Shown here piece after piece: positions 199 through 10,868 of a stretch of DNA of 64,000 nt. The first letter of the stretch is position 1. Each line of letters begins with the position of its first letter. The notes under the pieces were generated by a model, which saw nothing but the letters and a program-made list of their open reading frames with translations, made no database searches and had not been told where the DNA came from. Source of the stretch: Candidatus Firestoneibacteriota bacterium (lineage in GTDB: Bacteria > Oederibacteriota > D2-FULL-39-29 > JBBTED01); contig JBBTED010000048.1 in NCBI GenBank assembly GCA_038042445.1, positions 1 to 64,000 of the forward strand. Direction: 5' to 3'. The position numbers and the translations under genes are program-made.

Positions 199-456
199 TT
201 AGATTTTCCCTTTTTTTAAATTATTGATAAACCCTTTTGTTACATGTTTTTCTTTTCCCTTTTCTTTGAATGCAAGGCTTTCTAATTTCACGTATTCCTC
301 ATCTGTGAACTGTCTTTCTTTTGTCTCCAGAGGAATAAGCTCTATCCTATTTTTAGAAACCTCTACCTCAAACATAGACCCATTCCCTAAACTCAAAGCA
401 TTTGTAATCTTCTTAGGTATGGTTATTTGATTCTTTGATGTCATTGTAATAGTCAT
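199..456 (-). CDS. AbrB/MazE/SpoVT-family antitoxin
   Basis: MTSKNQITIPKKI...L.LG.G..FEVEV swapped-hairpin motif; SD GAGGTG upstream. Confidence 0.85.
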   Translation of the reverse strand: MTITMTSKNQITIPKKITNALSLGNGSMFEVEVSKNRIELIPLETKERQFTDEEYVKLESLAFKEKGKEKHVTKGFINNLKKGKI

Positions 457-477
457 CTTTATTCACCTCTGGTAACA

Positions 478-506
478 AGTATACCTTAAAGTAAGGAAAT
501 CGTCAA
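478..506 (-). promoter_or_regulatory. Sigma70 promoter of the AbrB/RelE pair with a palindromic operator in the spacer
   Basis: Minus strand TTGACG-17 bp-TATACT; the spacer contains the inverted repeat CCTTA-aag-TAAGG (484-496). Confidence 0.7.
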
Positions 507-611
507 TGACGAAAATAGAAAAGTAAGTATTATGACTATTTAGTTCATTTAGCTTCTATTGTAGCAAGATACAAACAATATTTATTGCATTTTAAAAACT
601 GTTTTAAAAGA

Positions 612-3527
612 TTAAAACAATGTTCCTTTGATCATATTCTTTGTAATCTTCACATAATTAAATATGTCTATTATATTAGCCCCATTATCTTTCATAGTAT
701 AAAATGTATTTTCGCCCAAAAGCACATATTCCCATTCAGCATTCATTCTGTCCTCTATCTTTAGTTTATTAATTCTTTCTGTCCAATCAATTGTTGCTAA
801 TTGTTTCAATTTAACGTTTTCGACAGAAATCCTATCTTGTCCTTTTGTTTCAACTATATAGATTTTATCTTTTGTTTTTACAAGAAAATCAGGAGAATAA
901 GAAGCTAACATCCCATCAGACCGCACATAATTAATCTTAGCAAAATAATGATAGTTTTCATTTACCTTCACAAATGCTTGCACATTTGTATCAGTATCGC
1001 AAAATTCCATAAATGCCTTTTCAAGTCCACCTTTATTGGATGGATAAGATTGTCTTTCGTAAATAGTTTTCTCTATTTTCAAGCAATATTGTTCCCGCAT
1101 TTTTAAAGGTGTAATTTCCGAAAAATATCTTTTTATAACTATTGCTTCAGAAATATCAATATTATTTTGTAATTCATAAATAGCTTTACTTATTTCCTTG
1201 ATTATATGTTCAACAATTCCTGTTTGAGATAACAAAAGAACACGCCAATTATTTTCGAAGAACGGATCAAAACTCTTATTAAACAATCTTGTACGAACAT
1301 ACGTATCTATTGCTCTTGCAATCTCGACCTGATTTATCTGCATAGATGGATATTCTTTGGTTTTACGAGCGCTTATTTTCACAATCATTGTAGACACAGA
1401 AGAAACAATCTTAGCGATAAATTCATTATAACTTTTAGAATTAAATATATCTGGTTTTACTTCATAATCTCCAAAACGTGTTTTAACTGTCATTTCTTCT
1501 GAAAAGAAAACGTCTCCACCTTTTGGTGCCATTTTTTTAAGCTGCTCTAATTCAAAATAATTAAAAATTGCTAAACTATTAACTCCTATTTTAGTAGGAA
1601 TTAAATTTTCCTCTTTGTCAGTAAGAATAACAGGAAAATAGATATCATAATCCTTATAATTAGTCTTAAGTCCTACTGAAATAATATCTCCTAACACACT
1701 CTGCCCATCTGTTGGCTCTGATTCAATTATTACCACCTCTTTAATTAAATCATCATAAAATTCAATAAACGCAGGGTGTTCTACAATACTTAAAATGTCC
1801 ATATAGTTTTTCGGTTCCTGTTTTTTCTGAAGAAGAGCAATTCTATTTTCTTCTTTACCCTCTTGATATTCTGGTTCACGCCACATAAGACGCAACCCTC
1901 TACCTATAACTTGTTCCAAAAGAATTGGAGCCTGACTAGACCTTAATGGTACAATCACACAAATATTATTGATATCAAAACCCTCTCTTAACATCAATAC
2001 CGAAACAATCACTTTTGGTTGAAAATGTTTATCAACATTAAAAAGTCTTTGTTTCAATTTAAGCCATTCTTCTTGTGAAATAGACCCTTTTTTGTCTGAA
2101 TCAATTTGAACTACATCTTTTTCATCCAATCCTTCATATTTTGTTAAGTATTCCACCACAAATGGTGACACTTTAGTATCTTCGCATATAACAAACATTT
2201 TAGGATATTTAGAATTTTTATCGTTTTTAGTAAGTGAAATAAAATGCTCCTCTAATTTTTTAAGTTTAGCAAGACCAGCACGCAACATTACCTTCTGCCC
2301 TAACGACAAACATATTACTTGATTTCCATCACGTTCTGCCTTAAAATCTAAAGGCAAAGAAGCAATTTCTTTTCTTCTATCAAGTGCTATAGTTTTAACT
2401 AAACCCGAATGAATCGCTGTCCTTAAATCAAAATCAACAACTATGTGTGGGAAATAATGCTTTGTCCTCTTTTGTCCACTTCCTGTAACATCATATGGAG
2501 TAGCTGAAAAATCTATCTGAATAAATTTACTACCTTTTGTAGAACTTATATAAGTAAGACTTTTTTGCCACTCTACTTCCTGAATATCTCCATACAACTT
2601 ATTTTCATGTATGTGATGTGCTTCATCATTAATAACAACCAGATTATTTAATCGTTTTAGAAATTCCAGTTCATTACCTTTAAGATATTGATTGTCTAAT
2701 GTTTCTAAAGAATGTCCAGCAGATATTCCCGGTCTTATTGGTAAAATATCATCTATGATTTTGGATGGATTTTCTATTGGAGATACTTCTATCGGTTCTT
2801 CATCATCTAAACCAGCCAACAAATGCCAATTTGCAATTGCAATTAAACCATCGCCAGTAACCTTTTTACCAATCTCTTCTTTTCTACATACACCGCTTTG
2901 CATAAAACCAAATAATTCTTCTGCAAACCATGGAGGTATAAAAAGAGATTCATATACTTTAAAATCAGAAGAACTAAAATCTCTTTTTCCTTCTTCATTT
3001 TCTTTTCCAAGATAAGCATCTAATAACCTTTCATATACAATTAAACCAGGAGCTACAAGCAAAAAATTTTTAGAATACCTTCCACTTTGTGCTATCTCGT
3101 GTTTAGCATTCAGATACTGCCAAATAAGTAACGCATGCATAACCCATGTTTTGCCTGTTCCTGTTGCCATCTTCATTGCATATTTCGGGTGTTGATATTT
3201 AGATTTTTTTAACTCCACCTTATCCATTTCAGCAAGAATTTCATCATCAACTAAGGAATACATATCAAAAACAGTTGCTGGTTTTAAAATCTCATGTACA
3301 TAAATAGTATTAATAATTGCCTGTTTCTGCCCCTTGTGAAAATTGATATTTCTGTTTTCACAAAAACCATCTTCAAACCAATATTTTAATAAATCTTTAG
3401 TGTATGGAGTAAGTTTTTCTGTGAAGCTTTCATTTTTCAAATCAAATTGACTATTAACAATATCGGTGAGTCGTTTTACAAACCGTAAAGGAATATCTCT
3501 AGTGCCAATATTAAGAGGAGTAGGCAT
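612..3527 (-). CDS. res: Type III restriction enzyme Res subunit (SF2 ATPase plus PD-(D/E)XK nuclease)
   Basis: Walker A MATGTGKT, DEAHH, SATP, LREGFD and EQVIGRGLR motifs; C-terminal YSPDF...VETKG. Confidence 0.92.
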   Translation of the reverse strand: MPTPLNIGTRDIPLRFVKRLTDIVNSQFDLKNESFTEKLTPYTKDLLKYWFEDGFCENRNINFHKGQKQAIINTIYVHEILKPATVFDMYSLVDDEILAEMDKVELKKSKYQHPKYAMKMATGTGKTWVMHALLIWQYLNAKHEIAQSGRYSKNFLLVAPGLIVYERLLDAYLGKENEEGKRDFSSSDFKVYESLFIPPWFAEELFGFMQSGVCRKEEIGKKVTGDGLIAIANWHLLAGLDDEEPIEVSPIENPSKIIDDILPIRPGISAGHSLETLDNQYLKGNELEFLKRLNNLVVINDEAHHIHENKLYGDIQEVEWQKSLTYISSTKGSKFIQIDFSATPYDVTGSGQKRTKHYFPHIVVDFDLRTAIHSGLVKTIALDRRKEIASLPLDFKAERDGNQVICLSLGQKVMLRAGLAKLKKLEEHFISLTKNDKNSKYPKMFVICEDTKVSPFVVEYLTKYEGLDEKDVVQIDSDKKGSISQEEWLKLKQRLFNVDKHFQPKVIVSVLMLREGFDINNICVIVPLRSSQAPILLEQVIGRGLRLMWREPEYQEGKEENRIALLQKKQEPKNYMDILSIVEHPAFIEFYDDLIKEVVIIESEPTDGQSVLGDIISVGLKTNYKDYDIYFPVILTDKEENLIPTKIGVNSLAIFNYFELEQLKKMAPKGGDVFFSEEMTVKTRFGDYEVKPDIFNSKSYNEFIAKIVSSVSTMIVKISARKTKEYPSMQINQVEIARAIDTYVRTRLFNKSFDPFFENNWRVLLLSQTGIVEHIIKEISKAIYELQNNIDISEAIVIKRYFSEITPLKMREQYCLKIEKTIYERQSYPSNKGGLEKAFMEFCDTDTNVQAFVKVNENYHYFAKINYVRSDGMLASYSPDFLVKTKDKIYIVETKGQDRISVENVKLKQLATIDWTERINKLKIEDRMNAEWEYVLLGENTFYTMKDNGANIIDIFNYVKITKNMIKGTLF

Positions 3528-3532
3528 AAATC

Positions 3533-4348
3533 TTAATGTCCTGCAAAAACAGGTTCTCTTTTATTAACCTGTTTAGTAATTTCTGTTATTGTTCCACTTT
3601 TAATATGATAATCTTTATTGTTTCTCTCGCAAAACTGAATTACTTGATAGCTTAAATCATTAAAAAACTCTTTATATTCTTTGTATTCAGATACTTTAGC
3701 ATTATAATTAAGTCTGCCAAATATAATTTTATCAACAAAAGATATTTCTTCAAGAATTTCCAAGAAATCTTGTGGTATTATATTTGGTGTTGGATATGGT
3801 TCTATACTAACCCATGTTTTTAACCCCTTTTTGTGTAAATAATACAAATGCTTAATTCTTTCCTTTATCATTGATGCAAATGGCTCTAACTTTTCCCTAT
3901 AGTCATCTTTTAAAGTTATTAATGTTATTCCAAATTCATTTTCTTTACTTAAATTGGCAAGGCTTATTGGTAATAGACCTTTTGTTAAAGCTGTACATCT
4001 TATATCATCAGCATTAAGCCTCTCAATAATCTTATAAGAAAGTTTTGATATTTCCTCATAACCATACATAAAAGGGTCTGTTGAAAAACAAAGATGAACA
4101 AATTTAATTCTATCTTTGTTTTTAGGTATTTCTTCTTCCAGTAATTCCAAAGCATTAGATACTATTTTAGGTTCAACCCACTCTTGATAATGTTTTACCT
4201 TGCCAAATCTTTTTGCCATCATCATTGCATAACAAGGATACAAACAACCATGAGAACAACCCTCTATATGATTAATAGTATAATCTCCATATTCAACTTC
4301 TGTTTTATAAAGCAATGACTTTCTAATTATTGTTTTCATAATAACCAC
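3533..4348 (-). CDS. Radical SAM protein (SPL/DUF5131-like three-Cys family)
   Basis: GCSHGCLYPCYA (CxxxCxxxC variant), STDPF, LTKG and WVSIEP motifs. Start is GTG 4348 or ATG 4339. Confidence 0.85.
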   Translation of the reverse strand: MVIMKTIIRKSLLYKTEVEYGDYTINHIEGCSHGCLYPCYAMMMAKRFGKVKHYQEWVEPKIVSNALELLEEEIPKNKDRIKFVHLCFSTDPFMYGYEEISKLSYKIIERLNADDIRCTALTKGLLPISLANLSKENEFGITLITLKDDYREKLEPFASMIKERIKHLYYLHKKGLKTWVSIEPYPTPNIIPQDFLEILEEISFVDKIIFGRLNYNAKVSEYKEYKEFFNDLSYQVIQFCERNNKDYHIKSGTITEITKQVNKREPVFAGH

Positions 4349-5433
4349 TATACAAAATATATAATGTCTTTTCCACTAAGTCCTATATTTGTCTTACTTG
4401 TGACTCTTTCCACTTGAATATGTTTTTTCTTTTCCATTTCTTTAAGTGCTTTCCTAATAGCACTCTCAAGATAAGGAACATCATCAATGATACAGCTTAT
4501 TAATTGATCAAACGCAATGGTTTTATTTTTAAATTCTTTCTTCAAATATTCACTAATATTTTTTTGCTCTATTTCTGGAGTATCAAACAGCGTAGGATAA
4601 ATTCTATCTTTACCCAAATATTCAACTTTACCAAAATTATACTTTGCAAAAGCAGATTTCATTACAGAACAAGCAAGAGGATGATTAGCAAGATGAAAAA
4701 GATAATAATATGTTCTTGCACTATTAGGAAATGCTATTCTATAAGGAAAAACATACTGACAGATTGTTTTTAACTTATTCCTAAATAGATTTACTATAGA
4801 TTTTTCTCTTTCATTGCCTTGAAGTTGAACTAATCCCTTCCATTCATTTCCACCAAAAAGATCATTCAGAACACCTTCAATACCTTCTATTAAAAACCTA
4901 TTTATGTTATTAAACATAAAATTAAGCACAATTTCATGAAATGGCATCTGCATTATTCTTTTAAGTGTTTTAAATTTTATTTTAAAACCAAATGGATCTA
5001 TGAAAAAAAATGAAGGATACGGCATATTAAGATTCTTATCAAGTATTTTATTTATTTGATTATCAAAATCCCCTTCTATTATAAATGGTTTGACTTTTAA
5101 CTTTTTTGAATCAAATATTTTTTTAAGGTTATCTACATTTTTCTTGTCTTGTTCAATTATTACTATTTGAACATTTCTGTCTAAACTATTAATGTTTTTT
5201 TCTATTGTTTCAGCTGCAAGTACAGGTGAACCATAAAATATTTTTTTATCTTCATCAATATAAGCTCCACTTCCACCATGGCAATCAAAATAAAAGAGAT
5301 CTTTATTTCTTGAACCAACTATTTTAATCCATTTATCAAAATATTCATTAACAACAAAATGCTTAATTTTTGTTTGCTCTTCGTAATTCCAAAAAAAATA
5401 GTCATATCCAGTTTTATAAATTTTATCCATCAT
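4348..5433 (-). CDS. tcmP: Three-Cys-motif partner protein TcmP (methyltransferase fold, probable C-terminal wHTH)
   Basis: TKIKH..V.EY...[21 protein letters not shown] and YYLFH...H...MK motifs; adjacent to the three-Cys radical SAM gene. Confidence 0.85.
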
Positions 5434-7412
5434 TTTACCTCTGTAATAACTACACTCTCAAAACCAAATACATCAACCGCTTTTATGCAAACTTTACGTT
5501 TATGTTTTATTTTTGGAACGTGCAGTTTTGTGCTTCTTACAACACGCATTGGATCATTATCAGATTCTACATTACCTCTATAATCTTGCCATTTACTACG
5601 AAAAACATCTCCATCATAATCAGGATCAATGCTCCAATATTCAATAAGAGCAAGTGGATCCTTAGAAATTATTTCTTGTAGTTTTTCTTTATCTTTTTCT
5701 TCAAGTGGTAAAGCATCAGGAGAAAGCAAAACATAGTTATCAAGTTCTATTGTAATCTGCTCGCTTTCATTATTTAACTCATCAACACGAATAGGTTTAA
5801 TGGTTAGATATTGAAGTGAAGAAAATCGTATTTTCCCACCTTTTATCAATTTTTGATAAGATGCTTTTGTTTTAAGCTTATCAAGTAAATCCGGGGGAAT
5901 AACAAGCACTTCAATCTGTAGGTCATTTAAATTAAATATAACCTGTCCAATATCTGTTACAAAATTCCACCCAAGCACTATAACTTTTTTCCATCCACCC
6001 ATAAAACTACCGCGAAGTTCCTGTGCACGTCTAAGTGTGTTATAGCCAGTAAGTTTAGAAGGTGAATCAACCATAACAAGTGTACGAGATTCTTTTACAT
6101 ACCCTAAATTCTTTTGAGTAGATTCTGTATCAGAAAAAGGAATAGCTCCATACAAATTCAATACTACATGAGAAAGGTCACTGACACGACGAAACTCACT
6201 CTTTTCAAATTGCTCTTTTTGGTAATCACCTATGGATTGATAAAGAAATGGTTTTGCATCTTGATCAATCAACCGTTTACGCATAATCATACAAGCAGGT
6301 TTTCCAATATCTGCCATTATCCAACGTCTTCCAAGTTTTTCAGCTACAGCACCTGTTGTGCCAGAACCAGCGAAAAAATCAGCTACGATTGAATTATCAT
6401 TAGATGATGCTTTTATTATACGTTCTAATAATTTTTCATTCTTTTCTGTACCATATCCATATTTGAATGTATACGCTTGAATATCCGACCAGTTTGAATC
6501 AGCAAATTTTTCTCGATTTGGCTCAACCCAATATTCTGGTTTTCCTGTTTGTGGATTTAATCTCAACTTATTGTTTTTTATGGCACTATCAATTTTCTCT
6601 TGATTCCACATCCAATGCCTTCCTGAAGGTGGAGACAATAATTTATCAAAAAATTTTCTTGTTTCTCCAGAACCGGGAGCATCCAAAGCATGCCAATAAC
6701 CTTCTTCTAATATTTCAACAGGAATTGGATTTAAAACTATTCTATTACCTTTCGAATAAAGATATATAACATCTGTTGCAACATTGAATCTTTTAATATT
6801 TGGATCGTTTTTTTTAACACGACCAACAATAATCTCATTTTTAAAATTTTCTTTCCCAAATATTTCATCTAAAATAATTTTTACATAATGACCAACATGC
6901 CAATCAATATGAACATAAATAGATCCTGTCTCTGAGAGTAATTCTCTCATTAAAACTAATCTTGGATATATCATTTTTAAATATGAAACAGTTCCATCTT
7001 TCCATGTATCTGAATAAGCAAACTGTTCTATTACTGTTGGTTTTTGTTCAATATCTCCATTTGGAAGAGTAATTTTAGTACGGTAATCAGCTTTAGAATC
7101 AAAAGGTGGGTCAATATAAATTAAATCAATTTTGCCTCGCATAGATGGTAAACCTTGCAATTCATCACCTGCCAATAATGCCTGCATTACTAAAAGATTG
7201 TCGCCATAAATAAGCCTATTGTACCAATTCTGTTTTATATCTTCTTTTACTTTGCCTTTAAAAAGTGTTTGTGTTTCTCTAGATGGTAAAACATACTCAT
7301 TTGTCTGTAATATTATCTTTTCTTTTTCCGAAAGCTCATTTAAAATTCTCTCCGCTTCCTTTTTACCTTCAGCTACAATTTTTGGCAATTGTTCAATCAA
7401 TGATTCAGACAT
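5430..7412 (-). CDS. mod: Type III R-M Mod subunit, beta-class N6-adenine DNA methyltransferase
   Basis: [14 protein letters not shown] (motif IV) ahead of DFFAGSGTT (motif I), intervening TRD and a long C-terminal region; same operon as res. Confidence 0.92.
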
Positions 7413-7451
7413 ATTATTTCTCCCTTAAAACTCCAGAATTTTATTGCTTGT

Positions 7452-7480
7452 ATTATAAGTATTTTAATCCAGATTATCAA
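7452..7480 (-). promoter_or_regulatory. Putative sigma70 promoter of the mod-tcmP-rSAM-res operon
   Basis: Minus strand TTGATA-17 bp-TATAAT, about 40 nt upstream of the mod ATG (SD AAGGGAG). Confidence 0.6.
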
Positions 7481-7607
7481 ATATAATCCAACTTACTAAT
7501 CTTTATATTTTACCAACAACTAAAGAGAATCTATTAACATTTTATCATGAAGAAGAAATAATGAATCTAACAAAATTAAATATTTCAGAGATATACTCTC
7601 ACACTCA

Positions 7608-8222
7608 TTAGTGAGTTATATTACATATTTTGCACTTAGCATTATATTTCATAATCTCTTTGTCATTCTTTATGTATTTGAATCTATTTTTTCTTGATTG
7701 AAATGCATCCTCAATCCAAGTTCGCAATTCAGTACCATTTGTAGGCGAGAACTTATATCTTGCATAACAATCTTTATGTTCTTTATTCCAATTATCTACA
7801 AAACGTTCTGGCAAATGTACACTAGATAAATTAGGTAATAATATACCCAAAAGACCATTCGGTAAATTATCCGTTCCCTGTCTTAAACTCGCTTTAATTT
7901 CCCAATCAACAAAACGCCTACCATGAGTACAAGAACCAAGAAGTACTATAGTTACTGTTGAATCTTGAATGTACCTTTTTCGTATTTGCGCAATTACATA
8001 TTCTGGATTATCACTATTAATAAAATCATCTTCATCGCTGACACCTAAAGCTTTCGGAATAAATATTTTTTCTCTTTCAGTCCACCTATATAAAAATAAT
8101 TTAACTTTATCATCATCCCTGTGGCAAAAGGATATAAAAACTTTCCTTTTGGGTTCTTGTTTACGTATTGACATTTCGCGTAGAATCTTTGCAAATCCTG
8201 TTTTCCTTCTTTCTTCTTCCAT
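7608..8222 (-). CDS. TIR-domain protein (Thoeris ThsB/DUF1863-like) with a C-terminal CxxC..H tail
   Basis: KVFISFCHRDD, DSTVTIVLLG and RRFVDWEIKASL (catalytic Glu present). Start moved from 8267 to ATG 8222, which follows a GGAG SD. Confidence 0.88.
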   Translation of the reverse strand: MEEERRKTGFAKILREMSIRKQEPKRKVFISFCHRDDDKVKLFLYRWTEREKIFIPKALGVSDEDDFINSDNPEYVIAQIRKRYIQDSTVTIVLLGSCTHGRRFVDWEIKASLRQGTDNLPNGLLGILLPNLSSVHLPERFVDNWNKEHKDCYARYKFSPTNGTELRTWIEDAFQSRKNRFKYIKNDKEIMKYNAKCKICNITH

Positions 8223-8340
8223 TTTTAATCTCCACACTTTCTGCAAAGGTAATTCATACATAATCAAATATGCATCCTAAAACATATTGTGAAACCATGG
8301 ATTATAGTCATTGAAAATTATGTTAATTCTTTACATCAAA

Positions 8341-8889
8341 CTATTTCGGCAATAATTGCGGCTTTTTATTAACATCCACTAATTTATATACCTCAACAAG
8401 TTTTGTCTGTAACTTTCTAATCAATACCCTCATATTCTTCCAATCTTCTAAGAACCTCTGACAATATGGATACTTTGTTTGTCTCTTAATAGGAGGTAAT
8501 CTCTTAGCTTTTTTGCCACAATATTCCCACCAATGTCTATAATCCGACTGCCATTTCTCTAAAAAAGGTCTAAGAACATTTACCATTAAATCATTTATAA
8601 TAATCCCCAAATGGTTACTTTTACTTTTCTTAAGTTGACCAACTGGAAATTTTCTCATTATACTTCTGCATTCTCTAAAGAAATTATGGACAGAATCAAG
8701 ACTTTCAATAAATACTTCTCCTTTAAAATTTTCACACTTGTGGTCATTGCTCTTCCCAGTTACGGACAATCTAGTACTAATTTCAGTATACAATTCCCAT
8801 GCACATTGCCGATCTTCCTCTGAAATTTCTGCTTGTATTTCTAAAAAACCAAGATTCAATGTTAAATTCAATTTTTTCAGTTCTGGCAT
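8341..8889 (-). CDS. Hypothetical soluble, mostly helical protein between two TIR genes
   Basis: 182 aa ORF with SD AGGAG. Motifs AWELYTEISTR and VLRPFLEKW; no TM segment or catalytic motif that I can assign. Confidence 0.8.
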   Translation of the reverse strand: MPELKKLNLTLNLGFLEIQAEISEEDRQCAWELYTEISTRLSVTGKSNDHKCENFKGEVFIESLDSVHNFFRECRSIMRKFPVGQLKKSKSNHLGIIINDLMVNVLRPFLEKWQSDYRHWWEYCGKKAKRLPPIKRQTKYPYCQRFLEDWKNMRVLIRKLQTKLVEVYKLVDVNKKPQLLPK

Positions 8890-8900
8890 ATAATCTCCTA

Positions 8901-9365
8901 TTAATCAGGATCCTTATCTATCCATTTATCAAGCTTTTCCGGATTCCAATTCATTACTTCTGTTGATCGTTCACCTAATGCAGATGGTTTCTTAGCATTA
9001 TCACGATCTTTAAGTCGCATACCTCTTATTCGTTGCCAAGTTTTATCTCCAGATAAGTCATATTTCATATTATAAAATGTTTTAATCTCCCAATCAACCC
9101 ATTCACTATCAAAAGTAGAAGGACCAATAAGCACAACAAGTTTTGAAGCATTATCAAACTTAGAAATAATTTCCTCCCGTACTGGTTTAGACCTATCATC
9201 ATTTGGTGGATAAATAATTGGTTTACCACTTTTATCTAGAACTGGATCCTTTAACGAATGATCTCTAAAATCCAAAACATGATCTGGATTGTTATTTAAA
9301 AGCTTAAATCCATTCACCTGCGAAACATCACCATGGTCATAACTAATAAAGACATTCTTACTCAT
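8901..9365 (-). CDS. TIR-domain protein (ThsB/DUF1863-like)
   Basis: NVFISYDHGD, ASKLVVLIG and SEWVDWEI (catalytic Glu); strong SD GAGGAGGTG. Confidence 0.88.
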   Translation of the reverse strand: MSKNVFISYDHGDVSQVNGFKLLNNNPDHVLDFRDHSLKDPVLDKSGKPIIYPPNDDRSKPVREEIISKFDNASKLVVLIGPSTFDSEWVDWEIKTFYNMKYDLSGDKTWQRIRGMRLKDRDNAKKPSALGERSTEVMNWNPEKLDKWIDKDPD

Positions 9366-9382
9366 AAAATATCACCTCCTCA

Positions 9383-10012
9383 TTATAATTTTCCGATTGT
9401 TGTAACAACAATGCCTTGAATTTTAAAGTCCCTTGTTAATATTATTGGTTTATGTGTTTCATTCGTAGATCTGGGTTTTAAAACAATTGCCCCTGCCTCA
9501 CAAAAAAATTCTTTAATAGTTGCCTCATCATCAATAAGTGCAACAACCATATCCCCATTATTAGCATTAGGCTGCTGACGAACTAAAACAATATCTCCAT
9601 CATTAATTTTATTTTGATTCATAGAATCACCTTTTGCTCTAAGCAAAAAATATTTGTATGGTGGCTTAGCTATATCAGTTGACACCAATATCTCTGCACT
9701 AACATTTACTTCTGCTAAAATAGGACTACCACACGAGACCACACCAACCAAAGGAACTTTTACAGTTTGAGCACATTCCTTGTTATTAATCTCTATATCA
9801 ATATCTTTTACAAGTTGTAAAGTTGTATCTGATTTTCTTTTAATCCATCCCTTCTTAATTAAATTATCTATGTAAATAGAAATGGAACGGGGTGATTTAT
9901 ATTCAAACTCTTTCATAAGTTGACGAACAGATGGACTTTCACCTACATCTATCAAATGGTTACGTATCGCCCTTAATACTCCTGTTTCTTTCTTTGATAA
10001 TCCTATTGCCAT
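9383..10012 (-). CDS. lexA: LexA-family repressor (wHTH plus S24 peptidase)
   Basis: SPSVRQL..LIKKGWI wHTH, cleavage loop VSCG (Cys-Gly), catalytic GDSM Ser and ATIK Lys. Confidence 0.92.
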   Translation of the reverse strand: MAIGLSKKETGVLRAIRNHLIDVGESPSVRQLMKEFEYKSPRSISIYIDNLIKKGWIKRKSDTTLQLVKDIDIEINNKECAQTVKVPLVGVVSCGSPILAEVNVSAEILVSTDIAKPPYKYFLLRAKGDSMNQNKINDGDIVLVRQQPNANNGDMVVALIDDEATIKEFFCEAGAIVLKPRSTNETHKPIILTRDFKIQGIVVTTIGKL

Positions 10013-10281: not shown

Positions 10282-10566
10282 ATGATAACTGTAAAAGAAA
10301 ATACAACATTGGTTGGAATCACTGAATTGAGACACAAGATAGATGAAATTTTAGAAGTGACCAAAAAAAACAATGTAATAATTGAAAAAAGAAATAAACC
10401 AATTGCAGTGCTTTTTCCGATAGACGAATATATAAAAATTCAAGAGATATTAGATATGGTAGAAGATAAAATGTTTGGACATATTGCTAAAGAAAGATAT
10501 GAAAAAAGTTCTTCAAAAAATTATATTTCGTTAGAATCTGCCAAGAAAAAGGTCGGAATAAAATAA
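10282..10566 (+). CDS. Phd/YefM-family antitoxin
   Basis: VGITELR...IL......VIIEKRNKPIAVL motif; SD GGAGGTG; TTGACA at 10233-10238. Confidence 0.88.
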   Translation: MITVKENTTLVGITELRHKIDEILEVTKKNNVIIEKRNKPIAVLFPIDEYIKIQEILDMVEDKMFGHIAKERYEKSSSKNYISLESAKKKVGIK

Positions 10567-10868
10567 TGTGGAATATTGAAATACATACTTTAGTCTTTGA
10601 AGAAGATTTTAAGAAAATAGACTCCTCTATGCAACAAGTAATTCTAAAAGCCATAGAAAAAAAATTAAGTGTAGATCCAGAAAATTATGGTACACCATTA
10701 AGAAATGAATTAAAAGGTTTCTGGAAACTGCCAATATCAAATTATCGCGTTATTTACAGGATAGAAAAACAACAAGTAAAAATTCTGGTTGTTAAAATTG
10801 GAATAAGAAGAGATTTTGAGGTTTACAAAGAAATGATTCCACGAATGAAAAAATTATTCATTTCATGA
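10566..10868 (+). CDS. RelE/ParE-family toxin
   Basis: G.PLR.ELKGFWKL.ISNYRVIYRI...V.IG.RR..VY; TAATG overlap with the antitoxin. Confidence 0.9.
   Translation: MWNIEIHTLVFEEDFKKIDSSMQQVILKAIEKKLSVDPENYGTPLRNELKGFWKLPISNYRVIYRIEKQQVKILVVKIGIRRDFEVYKEMIPRMKKLFIS

Follow-up and report, generated by a model that had tools for sequence, protein, structure and literature searches.

The stretch of DNA analysed here (the window) comprises 64,000 nt, positions 1 to 64,000 of contig JBBTED010000048.1 from a Candidatus Firestoneibacteriota bacterium, and all coordinates are given in window numbering. Its minus strand carries four intact open reading frames (ORFs) in the order mod-tcmP-rSAM-res, with gaps of 0 to 8 nt between them (Table 1). 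The outer two genes are those of a type III restriction-modification (R-M) system, and the inner two, which are the subject of this work, encode TcmP, a protein with a class I methyltransferase fold, and a radical S-adenosylmethionine (SAM) enzyme that we call rSAM.

Table 1. Features of the mod-tcmP-rSAM-res operon (window 612-7412, minus strand), listed in the direction of transcription
Feature	Position	Strand	Remarks
Promoter, sigma-70-like, TTGATA-17-TATAAT	7452..7480	-	~40 nt upstream of mod; 11/12 matches, best site in 400-7700
mod, predicted type III beta-class N6/N4 amino-methyltransferase, 660 aa	5430..7412	-	DPPF at residue 101, before FAGSG at 347
tcmP, predicted RlmJ/Trm1-like class I methyltransferase fold with C-terminal winged helix, 361 aa	4348..5433	-	TIGR04474, structural model, motifs
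rSAM, radical-SAM gene, 271 aa from GTG start	3533..4348	-	PF04055; C31-x3-C35-x3-C39-Y40; SPL-like fold, sister family of DUF5131
res, predicted superfamily 2 (SF2) helicase with C-terminal PD...ExK-type nuclease, 971 aa	612..3527	-	GTGKT at residue 123, DEAH at 301, SAT at 341
Weak terminator-like hairpin downstream of res	500..512	-	Sole one on the minus strand in 400-7700

The mod ATG is preceded by a GGGAG ribosome-binding site. The mod stop and the tcmP start share the ATGA at 5430-5433, and the rSAM stop codon (TAA) and the res ATG lie 5 nt apart (GATTT); both junctions read from the DNA as an earlier sequence-only reading had described them. That reading had also placed a 1-nt overlap between tcmP and rSAM at 4348, which is valid only if translation of rSAM starts at the GTG there. 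The alternative is an ATG at 4339 (MKTIIRKSLLYK), 8 nt past the tcmP stop, and sequence comparison makes it the more likely start because homologues begin M-x-x-I-x-RKSLLYK. The tcmP-rSAM coupling is tight with either start. The proposed single promoter upstream of mod is the best site in the region, but the scan as a whole was not above chance in this AT-rich DNA (39 promoter-like sites versus 43.1 +/- 7.1 in shuffled sequences). Sites scoring 10/12 also fall within the operon, one of them (5461-5432) immediately ahead of tcmP, and an internal promoter is therefore possible. The G+C content of tcmP and rSAM is 25-29%, compared with 28-35% for mod and res, and base composition gave no clear island signal.

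Mod matches N6_N4_Mtase (PF01555, E value of 1.6e-38) and the PADLOC profile MTase_III (2e-75), and its motif IV stands ahead of motif I, as in the beta class. Res matches ResIII (2.1e-14), Helicase_C, and PADLOC REase_III (1e-21), and its nuclease end has PD...ETK near residues 880-895, where the match to RE_endonuc is weak (0.0011). On these matches and motifs, mod and res are predicted to form a complete type III R-M operon. As in canonical EcoP15I-like systems, a beta-class Mod is followed by a helicase-nuclease Res in one operon. In contrast to those systems, mod does not directly precede res; the two share one strand and one promoter, but two intervening genes, 1.9 kb of foreign coding sequence, part them.

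TcmP scored 172.3 bits against TIGR04474 (cut-off, 53) and 173.2 bits in the genome search, and fell just under the cut-off of the Pfam family GMT-wHTH (26.1 bits versus 27). It contains DCHGGSG at residue 50 (motif I), DPFG at residue 146 (motif IV), and an N-terminal K24-H25. The first two had been picked out beforehand as methyltransferase motifs, and D50, G54, G56, D146-P-F-G149, and K24-H25 are invariant in 35/35 aligned TcmP homologues. In the structural model (predicted local distance difference test [pLDDT] score of 93), the C-terminal 80 residues form a winged helix. The closest structure is RlmJ, the 23S rRNA m6A2030 methyltransferase (Z score of 16.8 over 215 residues; root-mean-square deviation, 3.4), followed by the DUF519 protein 2oo3 (16.6), the tRNA m2,2G26 methyltransferase Trm1 (14.8), and generic class I methyltransferases (13-14). 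An initial comparison with Trm1 was thus reasonable, with RlmJ the closer relative in fold. Sequence identity to RlmJ/Trm1-type structures is 8-17%, and a PDB sequence search with the TcmP profile returned nothing meaningful. TcmP shares with these enzymes the fold and an amino-methyltransferase-type motif IV, which we take to be DPPY in RlmJ and DPFG in Trm1, but it differs from them in its extra winged helix and its constant radical-SAM partner.

The rSAM protein passes the threshold for PF04055 (39.9 bits; threshold, 29.5) and fails that for DUF5131 (PF07505), which it matches only over its N-terminal 80 residues (23.5 bits; gathering threshold, 28.9). Its cluster motif, CSHGCLYPC, is CX3CX3C and not the canonical radical-SAM CX3CX2C. 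This spacing is kept in the window protein, in 34/34 partners from genome loci, and in fused forms; Y40, right after the last cluster cysteine, is invariant, and C87 is nearly so, which makes the two candidate counterparts of the tyrosine and hydrogen-donor cysteine in the radical relay of spore photoproduct lyase. A profile search of 1.84 billion representatives placed 229 clusters in the CX3CX3C family at an E value of <=1e-30 and 1496 at <=1e-10, and nothing relevant to the motif was found in the literature. Other TcmP proteins have partners with CX3CX2C (spore photoproduct lyase [SPL] type) or CX6CX2C (DUF5131). In hhalign comparisons, the profile of the rSAM type aligned with DUF5131 partners over 207 columns (91.9% probability, E value of 7e-7) and with SPL-type partners over 108 columns (88%, 3e-6), by which measure the three partner classes are homologous. 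Because it lies below the DUF5131 threshold and yet is homologous by hhalign, the CX3CX3C enzyme is best classed, on sequence profiles, as a sister family of DUF5131 and not as a member. A passage of the RadicalSAM.org paper puts DUF5131 in Megacluster-5-2, beside SPL in 5-3.

In the fold comparison, the rSAM model (pLDDT of 89.7) gave SPL (SplB; PDB 4FHC and related) as all of its top six Foldseek matches in the PDB (template modelling [TM] score of 0.60-0.66), well ahead of other radical-SAM enzymes (next match, 0.46). It differs from SplB in being ~70 residues shorter, in an extra proline in the cluster loop, and in lacking a sequence-level match: Pfam SPL (PF20903) did not match the window protein at an E value of <=0.01, though it matches other TcmP partners, and PDB sequence searches with the protein and with its profile returned nothing meaningful, SPL included. 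The lyase-like fold is one of several observations consistent with an SOS-type DNA repair pair, in which rSAM would reverse a lesion in anoxic, dark habitats, TcmP would be the lesion-flipping, DNA-binding subunit, and the location within an R-M operon would be incidental. The intact methyltransferase motifs of TcmP, needless for a mere lesion binder, argue against this explanation, which we consider unlikely and to which the genomic contexts below return.

A protein search recovered 282 TcmP relatives at an E value of <=1e-5 from many bacterial and archaeal phyla, several of them fused to a radical-SAM domain (P0062, P0117, P0095, and P0055). P0123 and P0128 are further TcmP-rSAM fusions. A genome scan with the single TcmP protein gave no relatives; an alignment-seeded scan, with one genome per species, gave 80 loci, in which three genes on each side were annotated from a crude ORF caller. 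The CX3CX3C enzyme adjoins TcmP in 38 of these loci and is fused to it in one (L009). The other partners are SPL (PF20903), adjacent in 12 loci and fused in 7, DUF5131 in 9, and other PF04055 proteins in 2. A radical-SAM-type partner of some class, adjacent or fused, is therefore present in 69/80 loci, and the remaining 11 are mostly contig edges or genes missed by the ORF caller; the earlier statement that TcmP and three-Cys/radical-SAM genes are a recurrent pair is borne out. The pair occurs in more than 100 other loci. Dozens of loci with tcmP and rSAM side by side, and several proteins in which the two are joined, lead us to conclude that they belong together as a unit; the fusions suggest that the two proteins bind each other.

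This unit resembles the TcmP/three-Cys-motif (DUF5131, PF07505) pair catalogued by PADLOC as PDC-M30 and PDC-M41 in its TIGR04474 TcmP, in the near full-length homology of the partners, and in gene order and coupling. It differs in that the partner falls below the DUF5131 cut-off, has CX3CX3C instead of CX6CX2C, and forms its own family. The window TcmP matches PDC-M30A (1.2e-17) and PDC-M41A (4.7e-14), and rSAM matches the B components only weakly and over its N-terminal 70 residues (2.5e-6 and 2.5e-5). One further protein, P0124 (1002 aa), has the rSAM domain at residues 746-995 behind 745 residues that match no Pfam family and in which no TcmP similarity was detected; by sequence, this N-terminal part may be a different partner.

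We then consider whether this R-M family includes the pair as a regular component. When metagenomes were scanned with Res, 24 loci of 54-81% identity were obtained; 15 of them show both Mod and Res, and the other 9 are truncated upstream of res. The two genes abut in 12 of these 15 loci, usually as TAATG; L083 and L084, both within the 12, are the same element, and the apparent gap in L085 is Mod sequence in another frame. The junctions of the other three hold a DUF3800 gene (L094; PADLOC DUF3800_VII), a YhcG/DUF1016 gene (L096; PADLOC PDC-S02), and an IS200 transposase with YhcG (L103). Among 40 related genomes, the single close Res (G007, 72% identity) likewise has mod abutting res, in a different neighbourhood. 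Taken together, the junctions that could be read in close Mod/Res relatives (Res identity of 54-78%) are empty in 13/16 cases, hold other cargo in 3/16, and hold the pair in 0/16, in keeping with the expectation that mod and res are normally adjacent. The Mod of the window is 66-68% identical to that of relatives without an insert. We conclude that the TcmP-rSAM pair does not belong to the constant genes of this R-M family and that the mod-res junction, mostly empty but occupied in some relatives by other defence candidates, acts as a cargo slot; the R-M enzyme itself would not need the pair. Two details of these relatives may be added. In L085 the Mod frame is broken ~720 nt ahead of its normal end, and in L103 (5190-5410) the IS200-type transposase, with flanking hairpins, is inserted next to the YhcG gene.

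The sequence-only reading had offered two options, a second DNA modification linked to restriction or a nested defence/repair module co-expressed with the R-M genes, and had named variable, unrelated cargo in the closest mod/res homologues as a result that would tell against a functional link. That is largely what was found. The first option amounts to an integrated two-mark system in which the four genes are one unit and the pair writes a second, radical-SAM-dependent mark needed by the type III enzyme for self-protection or as a target. Such a dependence is hard to square with 13/16 empty junctions and 3/16 with unrelated cargo, and with the fact that Mod and Res are full length here while their relatives stand alone as ordinary systems. 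The second option fits the evidence.

The order mod-tcmP-rSAM-res with close Mod and Res homologues does recur, if rarely: a survey for it, which had been suggested from the window alone, found two other genomes among the 80 loci. One is a Nitrospirota bin (L003), and the other is a Desulfovibrionales bin in which the operon lies on two contigs broken inside tcmP (L070 and L017). Both genomes have overlapping mod stop and tcmP start codons, and rSAM stop and res start codons that touch. The Res proteins do not follow the presence of the pair. The window Res is 78% identical to those of the insert-less L082 and L086 and only 61-64% identical to those of the pair-bearing L003 and L017. In quick trees, which carry only Shimodaira-Hasegawa-like approximate likelihood ratio test (SH-aLRT) support, it fell in a clade with insert-less sequences (support of 95 and 97), and L003 and L017 formed a clade of their own (100). 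An approximately unbiased (AU) test rejected the union of the three Res proteins from pair-bearing operons in a single clade (log-likelihood difference of 95, P = 0.0001), for a group that was named after the tree had been seen. The rSAM proteins of the window, L003, and L017, in contrast, fell in one clade (99) with those of the LexA-associated cassettes L002 and L012. Since the cassettes are close kin and yet the Res proteins sit in separate branches, the cassette either arrived at the mod-res junction two or more times or was transferred among related operons; possible routes are separate insertions, recombination of one such operon with another, and several clean losses. For the two-mark system, this capture of related cassettes at one junction, together with translational coupling through all four genes in the window, L003, and L070/L017, is the evidence in its favour from the family itself.

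Across the 38 loci, the cassette occurs in varied company. R-M or bacteriophage exclusion (BREX) genes lie within three genes of it in 15/38 loci (L003, L013, L016, L017, L021, L024-L027, L032, L036, L041, L045, L056, and L062), the R-M systems being of types I, II, and III, and two further loci have other defence neighbours, an OLD-family nuclease and a STAND NTPase. About 40% of loci adjoin restriction, BREX, or type IV genes, which counts against repair. The adjoining methyltransferase-bearing systems in these 15 loci are compatible with a two-mark system, but the 23/38 loci with no R-M gene within three genes are not what it would predict. Repair-type neighbours are a Y-family polymerase, OGG (twice), RecG, EndoIV, PolX thumb, NUDIX_4, and RuvC, and there is also a rho/OGG context. 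LexA, a gene for 80 aa, and the pair follow one another in L002 and L012, an HTH-S24 repressor precedes the pair in L056, and LexA, TcmP, and SPL are in this order in L052. The repair explanation draws support from these LexA/S24 contexts and from the repair genes, neither of which fits a role in defence. The 80-aa protein between lexA and tcmP (L002:9706-9948 and L012:582-824) is conserved in the two Nitrospirota genomes and has no Pfam family.

In IMG/VR contigs, 69 loci with a CX3CX3C rSAM were found; the ORF was recovered in 68, and phmmer identified a TcmP neighbour in 49/68. Sampled neighbours in which TcmP had gone undetected match PDC-M30A. The neighbours were grouped by clustering, with one annotated representative per cluster. 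The most frequent is a type III Mod in 12/68 loci (PDLC03645, 1e-166), followed by a ResIII protein in 7; others are GmrSD in 4, an Eco57I-type methylase with a T5orf172-ResIII protein in 3, and MvaI, HindIII, and HsdR in 2 each. The position of the pair directly upstream of another type III Mod/Res family in 12/68 loci is a further point for a two-mark system, which on balance we nevertheless regard as quite improbable. In L157, L127, L151, and L156, rSAM is followed by a GmrSD-type nuclease (type IV, specific for modified DNA) and a type II restriction-enzyme-like protein. A larger block is found in L134, L144, L149, and ~20 similar loci: a divergent gene of ~645 aa without a family and a 76-aa HTH_26 gene precede a PDC-M30A-like TcmP, a PDC-M41A-like TcmP, rSAM, a type III Mod, ResIII, and sometimes AIPR, so that two TcmP paralogues accompany one radical-SAM enzyme. 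The 80-aa gene of L002 and L012 was tried as a relative of the HTH_26 gene and rejected as unrelated.

True phages also have the pair. In L161, L165, and L166, a SAM synthetase, an HNH gene, a short TcmP, and rSAM are followed by terminase, portal, and head genes; in L166 (4286-10737), TcmP is 283 aa long, the pair lies just upstream of the large terminase, and the SAM synthetase and HNH genes stand a few genes earlier. In L116 and L170, the pair is beside DNA methyltransferases. Phage copies with SAM synthetase and DNA methylases do not suit a repair pair.

In the window, the genes upstream of mod on the same strand are two ThsB-like TIR genes, a gene for 182 aa without a family, and lexA. 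At 7608-10012 (minus strand), the order is lexA, ThsB-like TIR, the 182-aa gene, and the second TIR, with spacers of 17, 11, and 73 nt, and no ThsA-like partner was seen near the TIR genes. The 195 nt that separate this cluster from mod contain no predicted minus-strand terminator, so that transcription starting at lexA may continue into the R-M operon. Immediately downstream of res is a MazE/AbrB-like gene (199-456), after which the contig ends, and a Phd/YefM-ParE pair (10282-10868) is divergent from lexA and followed by envelope genes. The operon thus belongs to a small island of defence and toxin-antitoxin genes that adjoins lexA and is bracketed by the MazE/AbrB-like gene and Phd/ParE. 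The location of lexA four genes upstream on the same strand is in line with the repair explanation, but a look by eye found no palindrome common to the lexA and mod upstream regions.

The island setting bears on a third explanation, that the pair is a stand-alone anti-phage effector or a PrrC-like back-up guard, which would damage or mark invading DNA or fire when the flanking R-M system is inhibited. Payne et al. (bioRxiv 10.1101/2024.01.29.577857), whose screen is the source of the PADLOC PDC candidates, describe in their main text "guilt-by-embedding" in Hma, BREX, DISARM, and type I R-M systems. Embedded genes there are nearly always co-oriented with the host system and are often defence systems themselves, and embedding may give co-transfer, co-regulation, or a back-up role, with PrrC as precedent. 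As in such embedding, the window pair is flanked on both sides by genes of a recognised defence system and shares their orientation. It resembles these cassettes, including PrrC in the EcoprrI type I operon, as a set of co-oriented accessory genes between modification-defence genes that varies among related operons. Compared with that main text, it differs in having a type III operon as its host and in occupying precisely the overlap of mod stop and res start; the same text names neither TcmP nor type III R-M, its lone "type III" being DRT. An anti-phage role is thus suggested by the precedent of embedding, by the PADLOC listing of TcmP-type pairs, including the components matched by the window proteins, as phage-defence candidates, and by the other cargo at the junction, which also consists of defence candidates. 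We doubt it all the same: the pair is also encoded by bona fide phages, its proximity to LexA and repair genes is at odds with a role in defence, and the main text of Payne et al. mentions no test of TcmP or of a PDC-M candidate.

The explanation that we prefer, with a probability of roughly 0.7, is that tcmP and rSAM are an autonomous, mobile, DNA-directed two-gene cassette embedded in the mod-res junction of a type III operon. We regard the cassette as autonomous because it is found in many other genomic contexts. Judging from fold, motifs, and context, TcmP would bind DNA through its winged helix, and its RlmJ/Trm1-like pocket, with an intact SAM motif and the invariant DPFG, would flip and perhaps N-methylate a base. 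The SPL-like radical-SAM enzyme would then carry out 5'-deoxyadenosyl-radical chemistry on the exposed nucleotide. We infer a DNA-directed mechanism because both folds resemble enzymes that handle a flipped-out nucleotide. Embedding would provide co-expression and co-transfer with the R-M genes. As to the output, a SAM-consuming DNA base modification is our leading candidate, held tentatively, with lesion reversal and attack on foreign DNA as alternatives. The intact methyltransferase motifs, the methylase-bearing company, and the position of phage copies next to SAM synthetase speak for modification; the lyase fold and the association with LexA and repair genes speak for repair; and the island setting speaks for defence.

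Several points weigh against an autonomous, modifying cassette. A LexA or S24 repressor is directly upstream in 3/38 loci (L002, L012, and L056) and in the SPL-type pair L052, and DNA-repair neighbours are present in 8/38 loci; both contexts fit repair at least as well as modification. The frequent position of rSAM directly ahead of a different type III Mod/Res in viral contigs hints at more than passive hitch-hiking. Cassettes of one clade are found at this junction in two separate branches of the R-M family, and this repeated use is the main point for a specific affinity between the cassette and type III operons. The locus counts include near-identical contigs and are not numbers of independent events, and the neighbourhoods extend to only three genes per side from a crude ORF caller. 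Finally, a literature search found no functional study of any TcmP pair; a passage that names TcmP does no more than list the gene.

That affinity would be explained if the pair wrote an undescribed, radical-SAM-dependent DNA base modification that type III R-M systems have repeatedly recruited as a second self-mark, a proposal to which we give little credence. If true, it would account for the independent captures at the same mod-res junction and for the type III family that follows the pair in many viral contigs, and the phage copies next to SAM synthetase would serve to imitate the mark.

The pair and its habit of adjoining restriction genes have already been catalogued. What is new here is the exact mod-res embedding in a type III system, the evidence for a cargo slot, and the apparent repeated capture. 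With the cargo slot at the mod-res overlap, a fifth kind of host system joins those for which embedding has been published. The operon is also a small, naturally occurring construct that links the pair to a restriction phenotype which can be read out. TcmP and its partner are one of the most widespread enzyme couples without a known function, and the joining of an amino-methyltransferase fold with a radical-SAM enzyme that resembles a DNA lyase points to undescribed DNA chemistry.

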